Origin: Verrucomicrobiota bacterium
GTDB taxonomy: Bacteria > Verrucomicrobiota > Verrucomicrobiia > CAIQCK01
Assembly: GCA_016222825.1 (NCBI GenBank)
Contig: JACRQF010000005.1
Span: 73,511 to 137,510, forward strand
Length of the DNA stretch: 64,000 nt
Direction of reading: 5' to 3'
Below, one piece after another: positions 270 through 20,423 of this stretch (the stretch's first letter is position 1; every line of letters begins with the position of its first letter). A model generated the notes under the pieces. It had not been told where the DNA came from. It worked only from the letters and a program-made list of their open reading frames with translations, and did no database searches. Made by a program: the position numbers and the translations under genes.

Positions 270-1408
270 ATGCCTTGGAAAACGAGTGGACCTATGGAAC
301 AACGAATGGAGTTTGCGCTGAAGGCGCTGCGAACGCTGAACTTTCGAGAACTATGCCGGGAGTATGGGATCAGCACCAAGACCGGTTACAAGTGGCGGCA
401 GCGAATGTTGGAGCACGGCCTGTCGGGCATGAACGAGGTGAGCCGGCGGCCCCATGAACATCCGCACGAGTTGGCCGAAGCGGTGGTGTGTGAGATGGTG
501 CGCTTGAAGCAGGCGCATCCGCATTGGGGGCCGCGGAAGATCCGAGTGCTCTACGCCCGTCAACACGGTGTCGAGGCATTGCCCAGCGAGAGCAGTTTCA
601 AGCGGGTGCTCTTGCGGGCGGGGTTGACGGTGCCGCGGCGGCTGCGCCGCTCGTCGGAGAGCGGGCGGTTAAGCCAAGGGCTGAAAGCGCAGCAGCCCAA
701 CGAGGTGTGGACGGTGGACTTCAAAGGGTGGTGGAAGGATCGGGAGGGGCTGCGGGTGGAACCGCTGACGGTGCGGGATGAATACAGCCGGATGCTGTTG
801 GAGATGCGGGCGATGGAGAACGGGCGCACGGAGTCGGTGCGGGCCTGTTTTGAGCGGTTATTCGAGCGATACGGGCTGCCCGGGGCCATTCGCAGCGACA
901 ACGGCTCACCGTTTGCCAGTGCCAACGGACTGTTGGGGTTGAGCCGGCTGTCGGCGTGGTGGCTGGCGCTGGGCATCGATCTGGAGCGGAGCCGGCCGGG
1001 CTGTCCACAGGACAACGGGGCGCATGAACGGATGCACCGGGATGTGCGGCGGGAGTTGCAGGCGGGGCGAATCGGGCGCGACCAGACGGCGTTTGATCTC
1101 TGGCGGGAACAATACAACCACGAGCGGCCGCATGAAGCGTTGGGGATGCGGGTGCCGGCGGAAGTTTACCGGCCCTCAGCGCGAGCGTATGAAGGCACGC
1201 CGGAGGACTTGGACTACGGCGGGATGGAAAAATGCGTCGGGTCAAACGCAAGAGCGGGGCAATCTTCTATCGGAATGAAAAGATCCTCATCTCGGCAGCC
1301 TTGGCCGATTGGTCGGTGGGACTGAGCACGCGTGAAGATGGTTGGGTGGAGGTGTGGTTCGGGGCCGGCATCTTCGTGATCCGCCAAGACGACTTAATGA
1401 CCCGTTAA
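270..1408 (+). mobile_element. IS481-family (rve integrase-core, DDE) transposase, apparently disrupted by a -1 indel in an A5 run near 1227-1231
   Basis: The 351-aa ORF has an N-terminal HTH and an rve-core region typical of IS481 (HEALGMRVPAEVY, LDYGG). The expected C-terminus (MRRVKRKSGAIFYRNEKILISAALADWSVGLSTREDGWVEVWFGAGIFVI) continues in another frame starting at about 1232. Imperfect direct repeats (CCAAGACGACTTAATGA / GCAAAGACGACTTAGCG / GCCAAGACATCTTAACGA) at 1383-1465 look like subterminal transposase-binding repeats. I could not define the terminal IRs. Confidence 0.75.
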
Positions 1409-1496
1409 GGGACTAAACGCTCCGCAAAGACGACTTAGCGCATTGCCAAGACATCTTAACGATCCTGAAAGATGCCGCCCCGCCCGCCCATCCCCA

Positions 1497-3497: not shown

Positions 3498-4685
3498 GCC
3501 CCGCGCCGCGCGGACGACTTTCTCCGCCGCGTCGGCCATGCCGGTGGCGGTGATGATCGGCAGGCCGCTCTCCTGCAACATCTTCTTGCCGAGTTCGACG
3601 TTGGTGCCTTCGAGCCGCACCACGAGCGGCACGGGGATGTGCACGGCCTTCGCGGCGGCGATGATGCCCGCGGCGAGCACGTCGCACTTCATGATGCCCC
3701 CGAAGATGTTCACGAGCAGCGCCTTCACGTTCTTGTCACTGCACAGGAGCTTGAACGCCGCCGTCACCTGCTCCACGCTCGCGCCGCCGCCGACATCGAG
3801 GAAGTTCGCCGGGCTGCCCCCGTAATGCTTGATGATGTCCATCGTCGCCATCGCGAGCCCCGCGCCGTTGACCATGCAGCCGATGTCGCCGTCGAGGCCG
3901 ATGTAGTTCAGGTCGTGCTTGCTCGCCTCCACGTCGCGCGGGTCTTCCTCGTTCGGGTCGCGCATCGCGGCGATGTCGGGATGCCGGAAGAGCGCGTTGT
4001 CGTCGAAGTTGAACTTCGCGTCCAGCGGGAAGACGGAGACCTTGCCGGCCGGGTCCGCCGCGACCGCCAGCGGGTTGATCTCCACCAGCGAGCAATCGCA
4101 CTCCCAGAAGATGCGGTAGATGTTCAGCATCAACTTCGTGCCCGCAGTGGCGAGGTCGCCACTGAGGCCGAGCGCCTTGCAGAGTTTGCGCGCCTGGAAC
4201 GGCATCATGCCGAGCGCGGGATCAATGATCTCCCTCACGATCTTCTCCGGCGTCTTCGCCGCCACCGTCTCGATATCCATGCCGCCTTCGGTGCTCGCGA
4301 TGACCACCGGCCGCGACACCGTGCGGTCCAGCAGCACCGCGAAATACAGCTCCCGCTGCACCTTCATGACGCTGGTGACGAGCACGCTGCGCACGACGCG
4401 GCCCTGCGGCCCCGTCTGGTGCGTCACGAGCGTCTTGCCGATCAGCTCGCGCGTGACGGCGGCGCATTCCTCGCGGGACTTGGCGAACTTCACGCCGCCG
4501 GCCTTCCCGCGACCGCCCGCGTGGATCTGCGCCTTGATGACGACCTGCGTGTCGGGTCCGTGCGCCGCGACGATCTCGTCGTAACGCGCCACCGCTTCGT
4601 CGGGCGTGCGGGCCACGCCGCCTGTCTCGACCGGGACGCCAAATCGCTTGAACAACTCCTTAGCCTGATATTCGTGGATATTCAT
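3492..4685 (-). CDS. sucC: Succinyl-CoA synthetase beta subunit
   Basis: [19 protein letters not shown]... ATP-grasp SucC. The ATG lies 3 codons inside the ORF-track start, which begins with TTG. Confidence 0.93.
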
Positions 4686-6595: not shown

Positions 6596-7590
6596 ACCGT
6601 CATATACGGCGTATCGCACGGCGCGTCCCAATACTTCAGCAGCTCGTCGTCCATCTTCGCGACGAACATCTGGAAGCCGCCCATCTCCTGCACCGTCAGG
6701 AACTCGCCGACGCGGGCGCGCGCCAACACGATGCCCTTCTGCGCCAGCACCTTCCCGACGCCGCGCATGATGATGAACTGCTCCATCAGCGTCGTCGCGC
6801 CGGCGCCGTTGATGATCACCAGCACCTTGTCGCCCGCCTTGGCCTTCACCGCTTCGAGCAACTGCGTCACCATGATCGCCGCCGTCTCGTCGGCGCTCTT
6901 CATCTTCGAGCGGCCCGTGCCGGCCTCGCCGTGCTGGCCCATGCCGATCTCCATCTCGTCGTCCGCCAGCGCAAAAATGGACTGCCCGCTGGCCGGATGC
7001 GTCGCCGTCGTCAACGCCACCGCCAGCGTCGCCATGTTGTTGTTGAACCGCTCCGCCAGCGCGAGCACCTCGTCGAGACTCTTGCCGGCTTCGGCGGCGG
7101 CGCCGGCGATCTTGTAAAGCGGGATGCAGCCCACCAGACCGCGGCGGTTCTCGGCGGGAGCGTTCGCGCCGGGCGCAATGTCCTCGTGCGTGAGGATGCT
7201 CTTCACGTTCAGGCCGGCCTTCGTGGCCATCTGCATGGCGATGTTCGAGCTCATCACGTCGCCCGCGTGGTTGAGCACCACCAGCAACGTCCCCGCCGGG
7301 CGGTTGGTCAGCTTCAGCGCGTCGAACACCTTCGGCGCGGCCGGCGCGGCGAAAATGTCGCCGACGACGCTGATGTCGAGCATGCCCTCGCCGACAAACC
7401 CGCTGAGCGCCGGCTCGTGGCCCGCGCCGCCGAGCGTGACCAGCGCCACCTTCGACGGGTCCTTCGGGCGGGCGCGGCAGACGAGCTTCTCGTTCTTCAG
7501 CGCCACCTTGTCGGAGTAGGCGAGGGCAAAGCCCTCCAGCAACTCCGGCGTCAGGTTCTTCGGGTCGTTGATAAATTTCTTCATAACCAT
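6589..7590 (-). CDS. dhaK: Dihydroxyacetone kinase subunit K
   Basis: MKKFINDPKNLTPELLEGFALAYSDKVAL...LVTLGGAGHEPA... DhaK family. Confidence 0.88.
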   Translation of the reverse strand: MVMKKFINDPKNLTPELLEGFALAYSDKVALKNEKLVCRARPKDPSKVALVTLGGAGHEPALSGFVGEGMLDISVVGDIFAAPAAPKVFDALKLTNRPAGTLLVVLNHAGDVMSSNIAMQMATKAGLNVKSILTHEDIAPGANAPAENRRGLVGCIPLYKIAGAAAEAGKSLDEVLALAERFNNNMATLAVALTTATHPASGQSIFALADDEMEIGMGQHGEAGTGRSKMKSADETAAIMVTQLLEAVKAKAGDKVLVIINGAGATTLMEQFIIMRGVGKVLAQKGIVLARARVGEFLTVQEMGGFQMFVAKMDDELLKYWDAPCDTPYMTVR

Positions 7591-8706: not shown

Positions 8707-9453
8707 TTACGCAAACTTGGCGAATATGTTCAAAACGAGCACCTCGATGTGCGCCGATGCCCTACTCTCACCAATCTTGAGCGAATTGGGATGACCGCAC
8801 CCATTTCGTAACTGGAGACAGTTGTTCTTCAACTCCTCCTTCACGTTCTTGCCGATGATGCTAAGAGGTGGGCTGCCGATGATATCAAGGAAGTCGGATT
8901 CCTTCATCCTCGATAGGTCATCTTTCGCCTTTGCTGCTCTCCAATCGGCATCGCGCCTTTGTGCCTCGGCGTTGAAGGCGTGAAGATGCCGACCGAAAAC
9001 TTCGTCTTGTAATAACGACATAGCTCCCACCCAGGAGAGAACTACGGCGGCCCTGTAAAGACCAGCTTCGAAAGACTTGATCGCTTCGTCTAGAAAGGCC
9101 GATGTGTCTTGGTCAGTAATGCGTTTGGCGTGCTGCCGCAGGGAAGATGCAATATGCACAACCTTAACGCTCTTCTTCTCCGGAACCACTCCGAGTTTCT
9201 GCACATGGTCTTTCCCCTGTGATGTTATTGACCATCCATCCGGCAATCTGACCGCCAAGCTCTTGCCGCGCTTAAGAATGTCCGAGACGTTCCAGCTATG
9301 GATTTCTGTAAGGCCCGCGTTACGCCCCAGCTTCTTAATCTCATTCACCTCCTTTGGTTTGCTTGGGTCAACGCAGAGTATAATCAACAACGCATCCAGT
9401 CTAGGTAAGCGCTGTTTGTTTAGACTTTCTACAAGATCAGTTTCGCTAAGCAA
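8707..9453 (-). CDS. Hypothetical two-domain protein: unknown N-terminal domain plus C-terminal all-alpha region with an R-x4-H motif (LQLRNGCGHPN) resembling Abi_C/Swt1-type HEPN RNase domains; second gene of a low-GC cassette
   Basis: 248-aa ORF with G+C clearly below the flanks. The R-x4-H motif sits about 30 residues from the C-terminus, as in Abi_C HEPN proteins. Its start overlaps the upstream ORF stop by 8 nt. Confidence 0.5.
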   Translation of the reverse strand: MLSETDLVESLNKQRLPRLDALLIILCVDPSKPKEVNEIKKLGRNAGLTEIHSWNVSDILKRGKSLAVRLPDGWSITSQGKDHVQKLGVVPEKKSVKVVHIASSLRQHAKRITDQDTSAFLDEAIKSFEAGLYRAAVVLSWVGAMSLLQDEVFGRHLHAFNAEAQRRDADWRAAKAKDDLSRMKESDFLDIIGSPPLSIIGKNVKEELKNNCLQLRNGCGHPNSLKIGESRASAHIEVLVLNIFAKFA

Positions 9454-9928: not shown

Positions 9929-10367
9929 CTCCTAGGTTTGCACCCTGGCAAGCCTGCAATCCAGCCGGGCGCGTTGTTGTTTGGTTCCAGTTCATCCGTT
10001 TGCGTCGTTCGTGGGGACGGCGTCTATAACCTCGCCGTTAAGGGGTTGGCTTGGATCGAAGATTGGCATGTCTCGGCCCTTTCCTCATGGGCGGTTTCTA
10101 CCGCAGCCGGCGAGGAAATGGAATCAAATTCTTTGCCCGCGAAACATGCGAAAAAACGCGAAAGGGAAGGCGGCCAGGCTGCAACCAGACAGGAGGAACA
10201 GAGGGGGCAAAATCATGGCTGACAAAATCATCATTTTGCCCTCAATGATTTTGCCCAAGAACTGTCCTCGGGAATCGTGGCACACTGCGGGAAATTTGAC
10301 GGATAGCGATACGGAAGGACGCGAAAGTGGAGAAGAAGGCGAAACTGTCAGTTGTCGGCTTTGAATG

Positions 10368-10485
10368 GTAGGGCGAGGCGTCCCGCCGAGCCGGTTCGCT
10401 GCCTGATATCTATACCGGCTCAGCGGGATGCCTCGCCCTACCTTGGTGCACGGCCTGCGGCTCGGCGGGACGCCTCGCCCTACCA
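10368..10485. repeat. Triple inverted-repeat structure: one 28-nt arm able to pair with either of two downstream complementary arms
   Basis: Arm 1 is GGTAGGGCGAGGCGTCCCGCCGAGCCGG (10368-10395). Arm 2 is CCGGCTCAGCGGGATGCCTCGCCCTACC (10416-10443, 2 mismatches). Arm 3 is GCTCGGCGGGACGCCTCGCCCTACC (10461-10485, essentially perfect). Confidence 0.6.
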
Positions 10486-10697
10486 AGCACAACCATCGTC
10501 GCCACGTGTGGGCACGCGGCCGACAACGATCAGCGGTCAGAGGCCGCTGCTACAGGGGGGCTTTTGGGGTGTGGATGTGGAAAAGCCATCCCGGAGGCCT
10601 CCGGAAGGGGTTTGGGAGGCTTCCCGGGCATGAAAATGATGATTTTTGTCAAAAAAGTTCCTTTTTCCGCTTCGGACGGGGTTTCCGGAGACTTGGA

Positions 10698-10965
10698 AGA
10701 TGTTTCCTCGTCGAGGGAAGATGTTTTGTCAGGCCATCAGTTAACATCTTTCCTCGATAAAGATGCTTCCTTCCTCAAGAAAGATGTTTTGTCACGCCGT
10801 CAGTTAACATCTTACCTCAACGAAGATGTTTCTTTGTTCAATAAAGATGTTTCCTTGTTGCACCAGTTAACATCTTTGTTCGACGAAGATGTTTTGTCGC
10901 GCCATCAGTTAACATCTTTGCTCAACAAGGATGTTTCCTCCCTCAACAAGGATGTTTCCTCAGAG
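10698..10965. repeat. AT-rich phased array of nine AAGATGTTT motifs at 21/42-bp spacing; four extended into 33-bp palindromes AAGATGTT-N17-AACATCTT containing a GTTAAC core
   Basis: Motif starts at about 10698, 10718, 10759, 10781, 10822, 10843, 10886, 10928 and 10949. The full palindromes are at 10718-10750, 10781-10813, 10843-10876 and 10886-10918. The array overlaps the dubious ORF 10564..11058. Confidence 0.65.
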
Positions 10966-11044
10966 GCCGGGAATGGCTTCGCTGAGCCGCTGGAACTGGT
11001 CAAAAAAAGCCAGAAACCCACGCCGCCGCGCCGACCTTGTTCCC

Positions 11045-14000
11045 CTACTCCTCGATGATGACGCGGAAGCCGACGTTGTAGGGGCGCTGCCAATCGGGGA
11101 CGGCCAAGCGGAAGGCGGAGCGGGCGAACTTGGGGCGCTCATACCAGGAACCGCCGCGGACGACTTTGGGGCCGGTGAGGCTGGCGTCGCTGGCGCCGGC
11201 GGCGGCGCTGTAGGGATAGGGGCGGAAGTTGGTGAGGGTCCACTCGCGGGCGTTGCCGTGCATGTTCTTCAGGCCCCAACGATTGGCGGCGAAGGCGTCC
11301 ACGTCGGCGAGCATGAGAACGCCGTCGTTGAAGCGGGGTTCCTTGGGGATGTAGTCCCAGAATTTGTCGGCGTTCTTGATCGGCTTCGGGTCCACGCCGC
11401 TGACGGCCATCTCGCTGAGGGTCTTGTCGCCGAGGTTTTCGCGCGCGGAGAAATCGGTATCGAGGTCGCCGTAGTTCATGGCGGTGTCGGTGCCGGCGCG
11501 GCAGGCCCATTCCCACTGGGCCTCGGTGGGCAACGTGACGCGCTTGCCGGTCTTCTGGGAGAGCCACTTGCAGAACTGCATGGCGCCGTCCCATGAGACG
11601 CGGATGGCGGGGAACTTCGGGTCGTCCATCGGGTAGCCGGGGTTGACCTGGTCCTTGTAGTGGCGGTCGTAGTGGGCGTTCTTGTGGGCGGGGTTGAAGG
11701 TCTGGTATTGGCCGAGGGAAACTTCGGTGACGCCCATCCAGAACGGTTTGGCGACGCGCACGACAGCGGTGGGCGATTCGTCGGAGAAGCCGTTGGCGTC
11801 GCCCATGACGAACGTGCCGGCGGGGATGCGCTTGAACTTCATGAGGAGACCGTTGCCGAGGTCTATGGCCAGGTCGGTGTTGCCGAGCGCGGACTGCATC
11901 TGCGCGGCTTTGGCGGCGTCGAAGGGCCAGCCGGGGAGATTTTGGATTTTGGATTTTGGATTTTGGATTTTTTCCAGCTCCGGTGCAATGAACGCGAGGC
12001 GCTGGGTGTAGTTGACCGGGATGGCTTCGATGTCTTCGTCCACGTTGGAGTAGAGCTTCCGCATCTCGTAGCGGCGCTTCTCGAAGTTCTTCGGAATCTC
12101 GCGCGCCTCGTGCCAGGTGCCGTAGCACGGGACGTTGAGGTCAATCCACGTGATGAGCCGGTCCCAGGCCTCGGCGTCGAGTTTGACGTTGTGGTGGCCC
12201 TTCTGGAGGATCTGGACCAACTCGCTGGTGTCGGCGTGGAACTCCAGTGGCGTCAGGAGATGGTAGTCGCCCTCGGGACCGTTGCGGCGCACGAACGGAT
12301 GCAGCGCCAGATACGACGCAGGCAACGGCGAGCCGGTGCTGGTGCGGACGATGTTGGTGTCGGCGAAATTCGGCTGAGTGGGAATCTTCCCGTCGTGGCA
12401 GCCGACGCAATACTTGTCGAGCACGGGCTGCACCTCGCGCGCGAAGGAGAAGCCGCGCTTCGGCCCGCGCCACGGCTTCGGGATGGAGGCTTCCCCGCGG
12501 GCGGCATCGCTATGGTTGAGGGTGAGCGAGTAGTGCTGCGGCTCGTGACAACCGGTGCAGGAAACGCGCTCGCCCGGCACGCCGACGAACCAGCTCCGCA
12601 TGTGTTGGAGCGCCTTGCCCTCCGCGTCGAGCGGCTGGATGGCGACAGGGGTGTTCGCGGGAATCTCGAAGTAAGCGGAGCCGTCGGGCTGAACCGGCAC
12701 GGTGCCGATGATGCGGCGCACGTCCCACGGGCCTTCCATGCCGACGAAGTAGTGCCCGCCCATGTTCCGGTAGGAATACTCATACTGGAAGATGCGCAGC
12801 GACTTGACCGTGCCCGGAGGCACACCCGCGAGGCCGGGGCCGGCGTAGATGTTCTGCACGGAAACGCTGGCGGTGGTCTTCGAGAGGTCCACGCGGTCGG
12901 GGATGACCGGCGGCGGCGTGGTCTTGCGCAGCGGGATCGGCTCGAACATCGCCTGGCCCGGCTGCTCCTTCAGGAGGATCATGTTGTCGAAGATGTCCAC
13001 GAGATAGAGGCCCCAGTTCGCGCGTCCGTCGAGTTTGCAGGAGACGAGGAATTGTTTGTCGCTCAGCGGGAACGGATGGAGGAACTTTGGCCATGAGTCG
13101 TTAACGAGGCCGTCCTTGATGATCGGCTCGACTTTCTTGCCATAGCCGGGAATGCGCTGCACCGCGCCGGAGCCTTCATGGCGGCCCTTGCTGGCGTCGA
13201 AGAGGACCAGTTCGCCCGCGCGCGCGACGCCGTGATGGCCGGTGACGATGGCGCAGAACATGGAGGGCTTGCCCGGCAGCGGCTTCGCGTAGAACATCGA
13301 GTTCGGCCAGTAGCTGTTGCTGCCGTAGAACTCCTGCTGGGCGGTGCCATCGGGGTTCATGTGCATCATCACGCGGCTGAAGTAGTGCGCGGAGTCGGTG
13401 TATTCCCAGCGCAGATACATCACGCGACCATCCTCCATCATGGTGGGATACCAGTCGTTGTCCTGGTCGTAACAGAGGCGGCGGACGTTCTTGCCGTCGG
13501 CGTCCATGATGTGGAGGTTCGCGACGTAGTCGCTGCCGCCGACGCACGGCACGCCCTGAAACGTGCTGCTGCAATCGAAGATGATGCGGCCGTCGGGCAG
13601 ATACGTGCCGTCGTAGTTGTCCACGTCGTCATATTCGCCGCGCGATACCTGGCGGAAGCCGCTGCCGTCGAGCTTCGCCTCGAAGACCTGCCAGCGGTCG
13701 TTGGAGCCGATGGACGAGAACAGGATGCGCTCGCCGTCGAAGTGGAGACGCATGTCACCGACGAACACGTCGCGCTGCGGCTTGAAGACGCGCTGGAGCG
13801 GGGCGTTCTTCTCGCGGAGGGAGAGCGTGGCGATTTCGTTGACCGTGGCGGGCTTGACGCTGGAGTTGCCCTGCCAGTTGGCCGGCAGGCAGAGCCGGTT
13901 GCCGTCGCGCTTGACGAAGAGGATCTTGTCGAAGTTGATGACCGGGTTGTTGAGGATCAACGCCTCGCGCTGGAGGTTGTCGCAACGCGCGCCGAACTCC

Positions 14001-19634: not shown

Positions 19635-20423
19635 CTAGGCGCTGGCAGCGGGCGCTTCCGGGGCGGGCGTCGCCTCGACGGCGGCGGGGGCTGCGGCAGC
19701 GGGTGCGGGCAGGTTCGCGCCAAGCTCCACGAGCGCTTCAACGACCGGCTCGGTGAGGCTGTGGACGATAAGCTTGATCGCGCGGATGGCGTCGTCGTTG
19801 GACGGAATTGGATACTGGACGCGGTCGGGGTCGCAGTTGGTGTCCACGATAGCCACCACGGGGATGCCGAGGCGGTTGGCCTCATGAATGGCGTTTTCCT
19901 CGCGCTTGATGTCTATGACTACCATCGCGGCCGGATGCTTCTCCATGTTGACGATGCCGTCGAGGTTCTTGTGGAGCCGGGCGGCCTCGCGCCGCATCGA
20001 GGAGACTTCCTTTTTGTGCATCCTGGCCATCTCGCCGCTGGTTTCGAGGCCCACGATGTAAAGGAGCCGTTTCACGCTGCGGCGAATGGTAACGAGATTG
20101 GTGAGAGTGCCGCCGACCCATCGCTCCGTGACGGAGAACATCTGCGTGGAGGTGGCGGCTTCGCGAATGGCCTCCTGGGCCTGTTTCTTTGTGCCGACCC
20201 AGAGAATCTTGCCGCCCTTGAGAGTGGTCTTACGGAGGAACTCACAGGCTTCCTGCAACAACTCCGCGCTCTTGGCGAGATCAATCACATGGATGCCATT
20301 GCGTGCCTCGAAGATGTATTGCTTCATCTTCGGGTTCCAGCGCTTGGTCTGGTGACCAAAATGGCATCCTGCTTCCAACAAGTCTTTAATCGTAGCGGCC
20401 AATGTATCCTCCGACTGTATCAT
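19635..20423 (-). CDS. rpsB: 30S ribosomal protein S2
   Basis: LLEAGCHFGHQTKRWNPKM... S2 signature; begins the rpsB-tsf-pyrH-frr operon. Confidence 0.93.
   Translation of the reverse strand: MIQSEDTLAATIKDLLEAGCHFGHQTKRWNPKMKQYIFEARNGIHVIDLAKSAELLQEACEFLRKTTLKGGKILWVGTKKQAQEAIREAATSTQMFSVTERWVGGTLTNLVTIRRSVKRLLYIVGLETSGEMARMHKKEVSSMRREAARLHKNLDGIVNMEKHPAAMVVIDIKREENAIHEANRLGIPVVAIVDTNCDPDRVQYPIPSNDDAIRAIKLIVHSLTEPVVEALVELGANLPAPAAAAPAAVEATPAPEAPAASA

Follow-up and report, generated by a model that had tools for sequence, protein, structure and literature searches.

Anatomy of the array

The DNA analyzed here, referred to as the window, is a stretch of 64 kb (64,000 nucleotides) from a Verrucomicrobiota bacterium (GenBank assembly GCA_016222825.1, contig JACRQF010000005.1, positions 73,511 to 137,510), and our subject is a row of short tandem repeats at 10696-10968 on its plus strand. 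The row is neighbored by a HEPN-like 248-aa gene and a 160-aa gene on one side and by the 3′ end of a convergent 1324-aa gene on the other, and an open reading frame (ORF) annotated as hypothetical protein HZC54_02610 runs across it. The original prediction had placed a 21-bp-phased array in this interval, and such an array is indeed present: 13 contiguous units are arranged head to tail, each exactly 21 bp long, and Tandem Repeats Finder returns periods of 21, 42, and 63 across them. The predicted sharp drop in G+C was likewise recovered (0.43-0.47 in the array vs 0.62-0.68 in the flanking genes); over 10696-10968 itself it is 43%, vs about 63% in the surroundings. A unit opens with the core R-A-R-GATGTTT at unit positions 1-10, and the 11 bp behind it form a pyrimidine-rich linker of variable sequence.

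The forward motif AAGATGTTT is carried by nine of the 13 units, which agrees with the nine motifs counted originally in number, but only six of them are exact (starts at 10697, 10718, 10781, 10823, 10844, and 10886); the other three, starting at 10760, 10928, and 10949, have one mismatch each, the variant AAGATGCTT occurring once and AGGATGTTT twice. Four units, termed C-type (CAGTTAACATCTT..., unit starts 10738, 10801, 10864, and 10906), hold the same 8-mer in the inverted orientation within the plus-strand array, i.e., the reverse complement AACATCTT at 10742-50, 10805-13, 10868-76, and 10910-18. The last two units read ACAAGGAUGU. The array ends with the 10-mer TCAGAGGCCG (10960-10969), and the same 10-mer is found at 10537-10546, upstream of the conserved leader described below, so that identical copies bracket the leader and the array.

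Pairing of the inverted core with a forward core 24 bp upstream of it produces four inverted repeats, which belong to neither strand in particular. Three of them, at 10718-10750, 10781-10813, and 10886-10918, read AAGATGTT-N17-AACATCTT with 8-bp arms, and the first extends to 15 bp with 93% complementarity (10711-10757). The remaining one, at 10844-10876, has the same 8-bp arms and a different interior (TTCCTTGTTGCACCAGTT). The four 33-bp palindromes proposed originally thus exist as inverted repeats, but their palindromy is confined to the 8-bp arms and the 17-bp interior is asymmetric; their near-identity holds for three and fails for the third in order of position, and GTTAAC, taken originally as the palindrome core, abuts the right arm and is off-centre.

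The density of these motifs is far from that of random sequence. Allowing one mismatch at most, 13 of the 28 motif matches in the window fall inside these 270 bp, and shuffled sequences gave a mean of 6.5 matches per whole window, with none of 100 shuffles reaching 28. For the paired arrangement AAGATG-N(0-30)-CATCTT, 0.03 occurrences per window would be expected, and the array alone has four.

Related arrays

Related arrays were found on three contigs (L001, L002, and L018), giving four arrays in total. A protein search with the window ORF returned three proteins: the identical NCBI entry HZC54_02610, a 228-aa ORF from another Verrucomicrobia metagenome-assembled genome (MAG), and a 140-aa ORF from a metagenome of the Joint Genome Institute (JGI). 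The contigs of these two homologues, L001 and L002, carry arrays built from the same three unit types as the window array, with 19-20 units and 13 units, respectively. L002 comes from a close relative and its array is orthologous: the 1324-aa gene has a 1322-aa orthologue there (93% identity in protein, 82% at four-fold sites), and the arylsulfotransferase-like gene on the other side of the array is also orthologous between the two. L001 comes from a distant relative with a syntenic array; the L001 array, like that of L002, is followed by a hemerythrin gene, and the two hemerythrin genes share 61% identity in protein and 62% at four-fold sites.

An exhaustive HMMER search of 1.84 billion representatives added a single relevant match, P0011, located on L018, which carries a diverged 21-bp array; the other matches (P0004-P0010 and P0012) were discarded as unrelated heptad or repeat proteins. 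A profile search led to P0013, which is the translation of the opposite strand of the same L018 array and corresponds to NCBI entry HZC54_10720; because this entry belongs to the same MAG as the window but to another contig, L018 holds a second, paralogous array in the window's own genome. Both unit comparison and blastn indicate that the minus strand of L018 is the homologous orientation. The paralogue has about 14 units (14-16) of the form RAAGATG(C/T)(A/T)T...; it lacks C-type units, and five units form perfect palindromes of 12-14 bp, e.g., AAGATGCATCTT, in which the inverted hexamer abuts the forward core. The terminal-type unit (TTGTCAGAGGCC) also occurs inside the paralogous array, as if two arrays had been fused.

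What all four arrays have in common is the core RAAGATG, the strict 21-bp period, and a leader on one side; their roughly 60 units are all exactly 21 bp long, with no indel. The number and order of units are not constant, however: the counts are 13, 13, 19-20, and 14-16, units are reshuffled even between close relatives (window unit W1 matches the penultimate unit of L002), and L001 contains six identical units consecutively. The 33-bp palindrome proposed as the conserved unit does not survive this comparison, since every inverted arm in L001 reads AACCTCTT, an uncompensated mismatch, and the paralogue contains no such unit.

Wider scans added nothing further. An exact degenerate pattern scan of the genome contig collection returned only the contig of L001, the metagenome contig scan gave no match to the C-to-A junction and 12 chance single matches to the A-to-A pattern, and the viral contig pattern scan gave no real match. 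When 72,556 plasmids and 50,697 phages were searched by blastn with leader plus array, nothing matched; the array portion of P0011 as a query likewise returned no matches, and a literature search for the palindrome sequence found incidental primer-like matches only.

Conservation of core and linker

Position by position, conservation is concentrated in the core. Among 26 distinct forward units from three genomes, unit positions 2, 4-7, 9, 10, and 13 are invariant, and positions 11-12 and 14-21 have an entropy of 0.8-1.7 bits. When the same entropies are averaged by codon position they amount to 0.56, 0.75, and 0.87, i.e., there is no three-nucleotide periodicity.

The comparison of the collinear units W5-W12 of the window with units 1-8 of L002 is the most direct. 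They differ at 30 of 168 nucleotides (17.9%), which is the neutral level, but the differences are distributed very unevenly: none of the 72 core sites has changed, where about 13 changes are expected, vs 30 of the 96 other sites (P ~6e-7 at a neutral identity of 82%). The third-codon positions inside the core are equally unchanged (0 of 22 differ, P ~0.013-0.022), and the 11-bp linker changes faster than neutral sites. Over the deeper split, the flanks of the window and L002 arrays retain 53-55% identity to those of L001 upstream and 39-48% downstream, and the three unit types are still identical at 17-19 of 21 nucleotides (counted by hand) with the forward core RARGATGTTT unchanged. The two paralogous arrays of one genome, although diverged, have the core in common as well. 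This pattern points to a constraint that acts on nucleotides rather than on codons.

The open reading frame across the array

The ORF that the original prediction noted across the array is real: it covers 10630-11058 on the plus strand (142 aa, or 164 aa from a TTG at 10564), is annotated as HZC54_02610, and shares 14 nt with the 3′ end of the 1324-aa gene. It reads the array as heptads of the types xDVSxLN, xDVLSxR, and QLTSxLN, and the peptide includes ...KDVSLLHQLTSLFDEDVLSR.... This ORF is probably not a genuine gene, as codon-level purifying selection, a conserved start, stop, and frame, and host-like codon usage were not found in it. The G+C content at third codon positions (GC3) is 0.46-0.53 in the arrays (0.49 in the window ORF) vs 0.84-0.89 in host genes (0.88), and it resembles only that of the adjacent foreign-looking genes (0.48-0.59), yet synteny indicates that the array has been at this locus since the divergence of L001 and L002 with its low GC3 kept. 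The ratio of nonsynonymous to synonymous differences per site (pN/pS) is 0.56 when orthologous units are compared, 0.61-0.76 between units of the window type, and 1.06 within the paralogue, and the ORF peptide differs from that of L002 at 30% of residues vs 7% in the adjacent 1324-aa protein. The original prediction had named a homologous repeat protein with synonymous-biased variation as the finding that would speak for a coding region; homologues of the ORF do exist, but across this range of pN/pS (0.56-1.06) no clear synonymous bias is seen.

The ends of the ORF are no better kept. An extra A in the A-run of L002, a 1-nt indel, puts the ATG of the window out of frame, so a start in L002 is possible only at an unsupported TTG; the leader carries a further indel of about 19-21 nt among loci; the stop is not conserved and the C-terminal tails are unrelated. 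In the paralogue the homologous frame is interrupted by an in-frame TGA two units after the leader. Two of the six frames of the paralogue are fully open across the array and a third has that single TGA only, which indicates that an open frame is cheap in such sequence. P0011 and P0013 are calls made by two gene callers on opposite strands of this one array, and on either strand its palindromic core AAGATGCATCTT translates as K-D-A-S, an example of how a DNA motif can give rise to the look of a heptad protein. The ORF has no Pfam, NCBIfam, or other protein-family match, and AlphaFold2 gave one generic long helix (residues 35-113) with disordered ends and a mean predicted local distance difference test score (pLDDT) of 60, which is not informative.

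Please note that the array is called a protein in three public annotations. One of them, P0003 (L002 6001-6423), carries the JGI name "predicted butyrate kinase (DUF1464 family)" without sequence support, likely an annotation error. Together with the gene calls on opposite strands, these annotations indicate that palindromic 21-bp repeats can create spurious "heptad-repeat protein families" in databases.

Leader and flanks

Next to all four arrays lies a conserved leader (window 10613-10695, plus strand). Alignment of the four loci shows the blocks RAARTGR, TTTTTG, GGGGTT, and GG.G.CTTG|GAAGATG. The leader is present on one side only of each array, and blastn finds leader and array in a single orientation, so the array, or the element as a whole, has a polarity. 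Its length is about 85 nt at the window and L002 loci and 104 nt at those of L001 and L018; the latter two align without gaps over the 104 nt, of which the window and L002 lack about 20, and leaders from different lineages are 52-65% identical in pairs. In the window and L002, though not in L001 or L018, the leader holds the 40-mer with the lowest G+C of the region (27.5%, 10627-10667), which abuts the array. The leader also contains TTTTTGTCAAAAAAG (10643-10657). Neither a sigma-70-like promoter in the leader nor a terminator after the array was found by scanning for them, and a sigma-54-like TGGC..TTGC noticed by eye in the leaders of L001 and L018 was dismissed as its spacing is wrong (GG-N8-GC, not N10).

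Outside the leader, the conservation is limited to the close relative. The outer upstream flank (10534-10612, plus strand) is common to the window and L002 only, and over 10530-10695 the two are 73% identical, no better than neutral; within it, the GC-rich hairpin CCGGAGGCCTCCGG (10589-10606) is weakly terminator-like on the minus strand. The downstream flank (10969-11030, plus strand) shares the short blocks GGTCAAAAA and CAGAAACC with L002 only.

Neighboring genes and other repeats

The genes beside the arrays differ from locus to locus: two membrane or unknown proteins in L002, an XRE-type helix-turn-helix gene and a Sll1717-type ATPase in L001, and a 474-aa unknown protein and a UvrD/PcrA helicase at the paralogue. 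The 248-aa protein of the window (8707-9453, minus strand) lies in a low-GC islet and contains the motif RNGCGH (Rx4H), which is consistent with the HEPN call of the original prediction; it has no Pfam or NCBIfam match, and a weak PADLOC match to PD-T7-3 (E = 9e-5). An element of about 166 bp is found in three copies, at 10002-10166 in the window and at 4389-4553 and 5431-5595 in L002, which are about 90% identical, i.e., above the neutral 82%. It sits directly upstream of minus-strand low-GC3 cassette genes (the 160-aa gene of the window and the 284-aa and 263-aa genes of L002), has no Rfam match, and may represent a cassette boundary or a promoter or 5′ leader common to these genes.

Other small repeats are abundant around the arrays. 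Repeats resembling repetitive extragenic palindromic (REP) sequences, GGGA(T/C)GCCTCGCCCTACC, occur in both orientations between the cassette genes and the array (window 10357-10393 and 10425-10489) and also at L001 7323-7414. The 660 bp that separate the paralogous array of L018 from the UvrD/PcrA-like gene (1361-2017) hold further GC-rich direct repeats (CACCGCCGGCA.TCCGAC.CGGCT...GCCTCGTCC...). L002 carries 80 bp from the 3′ end of the 1324-aa gene (matching window 11043-11122) twice, at 7215-7295 and from 9485 onward, on either side of a 2.2-kb segment with the hemerythrin gene and a histidine kinase gene; the window lacks this segment, which indicates that it was inserted or deleted between short repeats.

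The hexamer AAGATG is found 46 times outside the array, vs about 16 expected from base composition, an excess that coding bias probably explains in part. Pairs of the type AAGATG...CATCTT outside the array are found at 1335-1374, 2241-2255, and 20311-20330, of which the last was set aside as it is explained by the rpsB codons for KMKQYIF and the other two are leads at most. The first belongs to a group of hexamers (AAGATG at 1335 and 1469, CATCTT at 1369 and 1452; window 1335-1480) that follows an IS481-family transposase gene (270-1325). The second lies within a perfect 19-bp palindrome, TGAAGATG-GCT-CATCTTCA (2239-2257), that covers the start codon of mntA with the hexamer of the array. This gene, for a MntA-like nucleotidyltransferase (1944-2258), forms a toxin-antitoxin pair on the minus strand with the gene of a HepT-like RNase (1615-1839, apparently truncated or frameshifted), and the palindrome could be a single-copy operator of mntA-hepT for the putative factor of the array.

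Interpretation and rival explanations

We tentatively favor, at a confidence that falls somewhat short of even, the reading of the array as a non-coding cis-element, a helically phased row of putative protein-binding sites laid out like iterons or plasmid centromeres. Each 21-bp unit would be one site, comprising the core RAAGATG (extended here to AAGATGTTT) and an 11-bp linker of free sequence. As 21 bp corresponds to two turns of B-DNA, the 13 cores (13-20 in the relatives) would be displayed on one face of the helix, a geometry that would suit cooperative side-by-side binding or wrapping into a large nucleoprotein complex. The hexamer is used in both orientations, which suggests that the binder is dimeric or reads double-stranded DNA either way, and recognition as double-stranded DNA is further favored by the 21-bp period and the 12-14-bp palindromes of the paralogue. 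The leader on one side would give the element its polarity, and the ORF would be a by-product, because pyrimidines at linker positions 11 and 14 preclude stops in that frame. Conserved cores with variable linkers in strict register, cores in both orientations, a leader, conservation above that of the flanks, and the lack of coding signatures are what the four loci exhibit; protein binding, its cooperativity, and the role of the complex are what we infer from them. Candidate roles would be chromosome organization, titration of a regulator, or a site used by the neighboring variable gene cassettes. The preference of the original prediction for a function at the DNA level is upheld by the contiguous 7-10-nt core that includes third positions, the low GC3, the unconserved start and stop, and the stop in the paralogue, and its dimeric DNA-binding protein stays hypothetical.

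A stronger form of this proposal can be worded, and we consider it possible but rather doubtful: leader and phased AAGATG array together may constitute a previously undescribed, stand-alone chromosomal cis-element of Verrucomicrobia, present in at least two diverged copies per genome, that would assemble a large nucleoprotein complex with a putative DNA-binding protein, with no rep or par genes adjacent. Such an element might serve as a chromosome-organizing or pairing site, as a decoy array for a regulator, or as the anchor of a hotspot at which foreign cassettes are swapped.

Two explanations attribute the repeats to something other than a cis-acting site, and we regard a genuine small protein as unlikely and a functionless minisatellite as distinctly more so. 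The protein would be coiled-coil-like with the heptad consensus (K/E)-D-V-S-(S/L)-L-N, its repeats recently expanded and homogenized coding repeats, and the inverted motif an accident of the D-V (GATGTT) and T-S (ACATCT) codons; if real, such a repeat protein would be evolving fast and with a highly unusual choice of codons. The unit equals seven codons throughout, the paralogue too is called as a gene in the homologous orientation, hydrophobic residues recur at heptad positions 3 and 6 over the long predicted helix, and in a short N-terminal stretch three of four differences between the window and L002 are synonymous (judged by eye). Similar heptads do occur in real proteins: a chance find of the DNA pattern scan was a genuine-looking AT-rich 124-aa coiled-coil ORF at L008 1199-1573 (minus strand) with INKDISS/INEDVSS heptads and RRLTSIE. 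Against the protein, however, the conserved block is contiguous at the nucleotide level down to its synonymous sites, the codons of the linker change radically (K/E, S/L, W/R/G) and faster than neutral sites, the low GC3 has been kept through long residence in a genome of high GC3, and a frameshift separates close relatives; the unconserved termini, the TGA of the paralogue, the poor AlphaFold2 confidence, and the missing family tell in the same direction. A selfish or neutral minisatellite (variable number tandem repeat), kept by unequal recombination and with its apparent conservation owed to concerted evolution, would account for the turnover in unit number and order, including the run of six identical units in L001, and for the wealth of REP-like and other small repeats in the surrounding intergenic DNA. 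It would not be expected to spare the core while the linker varies (0 of 72 changes vs about 13 expected), nor to carry unit types and core through the L001/L002 split while the flanks fell to about 50% identity, nor to keep the core in two diverged paralogous arrays of one genome; the AT-richness is maintained although silent sites of the genome are 88% G+C, and no indel has entered some 60 units.

Two further explanations place the function in an RNA, which we think quite improbable, or in a mobile or recombining system, which we think very improbable. The array could be the body of a non-coding RNA transcribed from the leader, i.e., a series of hairpins, an AAGAUG sponge for an RNA-binding protein in the manner of CsrB/RsmZ, or a type III antitoxin array for a neighboring RNase toxin. 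Its best argument is the conserved leader with polarity; moreover, both strands fold far better than shuffles (z = -5.2 and -7.7), the last two units, ACAAGGAUGU, match what we take to be the CsrA SELEX (systematic evolution of ligands by exponential enrichment) consensus, and the window array adjoins the HEPN-like gene with its RNGCGH motif. Good folding is, however, automatic for any sequence with inverted repeats, and most units are lone, unpaired forward cores. The inverted arms of L001 would put a central mismatch into the hairpin on both strands (U-C on one, G-A on the other) without compensation in the forward arm. Rfam gave no match, and at a permissive E-value weak microRNA-model noise only, and the scans of leader and array end for a promoter and a terminator were negative. 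GGA is present in two of 13 units in the window, in four units in L001, and in none in L002 or the paralogue, and the neighbors on the leader side are unrelated among loci, often on the other strand, with no conserved toxin partner among them. In the last alternative the array would be the cis site of a multi-site recombinase, a transposase end, or a landing pad at a cassette-exchange hotspot. The window and L002 do carry different low-GC3 genes between the arylsulfotransferase-like gene and the array, with the ~166-bp element preceding each cassette gene (once in the window, twice in L002); leader and array recur at two unrelated loci of the same genome, and the leader of the paralogue likewise abuts a low-GC3 gene. 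But there is no recombinase or transposase beside any of the arrays, the nearest being the IS481-type transposase 9 kb away, no matching second end was found, the L001 array has no low-GC cargo on its leader side, and 13-20 contiguous sites are, to our knowledge, far above the numbers of sites in Tn7, Mu, or integron systems.

The binding-site reading itself meets several objections. No candidate binding protein was found, and the genes beside the four arrays are mutually unrelated; their surroundings contain neither a rep, par, dnaA, or integrase gene nor a conserved DnaA box or parS, so that, with no plasmid or phage match either, the replication or partition site of an integrated element suggested originally finds no backing. 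Measured between centres, inverted and forward cores are 27 bp and 15 bp apart and so do not share a helical face. The conserved leader with polarity would equally suit a transcribed element. Three of the four arrays (window, L001, and L002) leave the same frame open throughout and have a gene called in it, pN/pS is somewhat below 1 (0.56-0.76), and about half of the minimum substitution events fall at third positions (a hand tally, unscripted), which taken together make a weakly constrained repeat protein possible. Finally, the statistics draw on four arrays in three genomes, two of them close relatives, and few independent lineages stand behind them. If the array is a binding platform, it would point to a new DNA-binding protein and to a nucleoprotein structure on the chromosome in a phylum in which chromosome biology has hardly been studied; it also borders a region that exchanges foreign genes.

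Comparison with known systems

Several families of repeat arrays resemble the present one in part. CRISPR arrays, in which repeats of 21-48 bp alternate with unique spacers of comparable length and which usually come with cas genes, were excluded, as the conserved part here is 7-13 nt, the linkers are 9-11 nt and mutually related, and no cas genes were found. The RNAs CsrB and RsmZ display many GGA motifs in hairpin loops, and ToxI is the antitoxin of a type III system, in which the tandem repeats precede a terminator and a same-strand toxin gene; the likeness to both lies in a stand-alone array of a dozen or more short motifs with a defined polarity. A sponge RNA like CsrB/RsmZ was nevertheless rejected because GGA is mostly absent and the motif would sit in stems rather than loops, and a ToxI-like antitoxin because no same-strand gene follows the array in the window, L002, or L018, there is no terminator, and the neighbors at the other loci encode unrelated membrane or unknown proteins. 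The translated array resembles heptad coiled-coil proteins such as that of L008 in its xDVSSLN heptads, 3-4 hydrophobic spacing, and predicted helix; it differs from such a protein in the lack of codon-periodic conservation, the atypical GC3, the unconserved termini, the stop in the paralogue, and the lack of a family.

Among DNA-binding sites, those of LytTR proteins are 9-bp direct repeats with a 12-bp spacer, hence 21 bp centre to centre. The sequence CAGTTAAC in the C-type units resembles what is presumably the AgrA box, ACAGTTAAG, and the period fits; the spacing of the C-type units is 42-63 bp, however, the forward core is a poor match, and a LytTR gene was not seen nearby. The operators of Omega and ParG consist of heptad sites in both orientations, e.g., forward-forward-inverted, which are bound cooperatively by a small dimeric repressor, and the reuse of one short core many times in both orientations is common to them and the array. 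Those are contiguous 7-bp units in the promoters of plasmid genes, whereas here the units are 21 bp long with linkers, and no such gene or promoter was seen.

Iterons offer a closer parallel. Those of plasmids (RK2 oriV, R6K gamma ori) are repeats of about 17-22 bp, and the array shares with them tandem direct repeats some two helical turns apart, a conserved core with a looser remainder, and inverted copies such as are sometimes found; an AT-rich stretch adjoins the array at two of the loci, the window and L002, and is absent in L001 and the paralogue. The differences are that no Rep initiator gene was found within ~6 kb of any of the four arrays (Rep and Par genes were sought by Pfam, NCBIfam, and PADLOC scans of the neighbors at the four loci, several of which are unannotated), that the context is chromosomal and syntenic, and that 13-20 units exceed most iteron sets. 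An origin is typically laid out with DnaA boxes, iterons, and an unwinding element (PMC4980987). One DnaA box with one mismatch is present at 10576 in the window only, and none within one mismatch in L001, L002, or L018; a chromosomal origin (oriC) was rejected as the DnaA boxes are unconserved and the cumulative GC skew dips only locally near 10 kb, with no global switch.

Plasmid centromeres are, with iterons, the closest in layout. In the sopC site of the F plasmid, a 43-bp direct repeat occurs 12 times, and SopB binds a 16-bp inverted repeat within each copy (PMC3177203); the 42-bp super-units of the window array with their inverted repeat are very similar in layout. Inverted repeats of this type are formed by four of 13 units (8-bp arms) in the window and L002, are mismatched in all copies of L001, and are absent as such in the paralogue, where five of about 14 units are perfect 12-14-bp palindromes. 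The arrays of parC (R1, pSK41) are built of 11- or 20-bp repeats bound by the ribbon-helix-helix protein ParR. The present array differs from both sopC and parC in that no sopAB, parAB, or parMR genes were found nearby, it is not plasmid-borne, and its inverted repeat is unconserved in L001; no parS-like 16-mer within three mismatches was found at the four loci, and the context is that of a chromosome, with rpsB, sucD, and dak and with synteny to L002 and L001. The array thus fails membership in the iteron and plasmid-centromere families, though it is alike in layout. It is best placed as a lineage-restricted form of a known class, the phased binding-site arrays.

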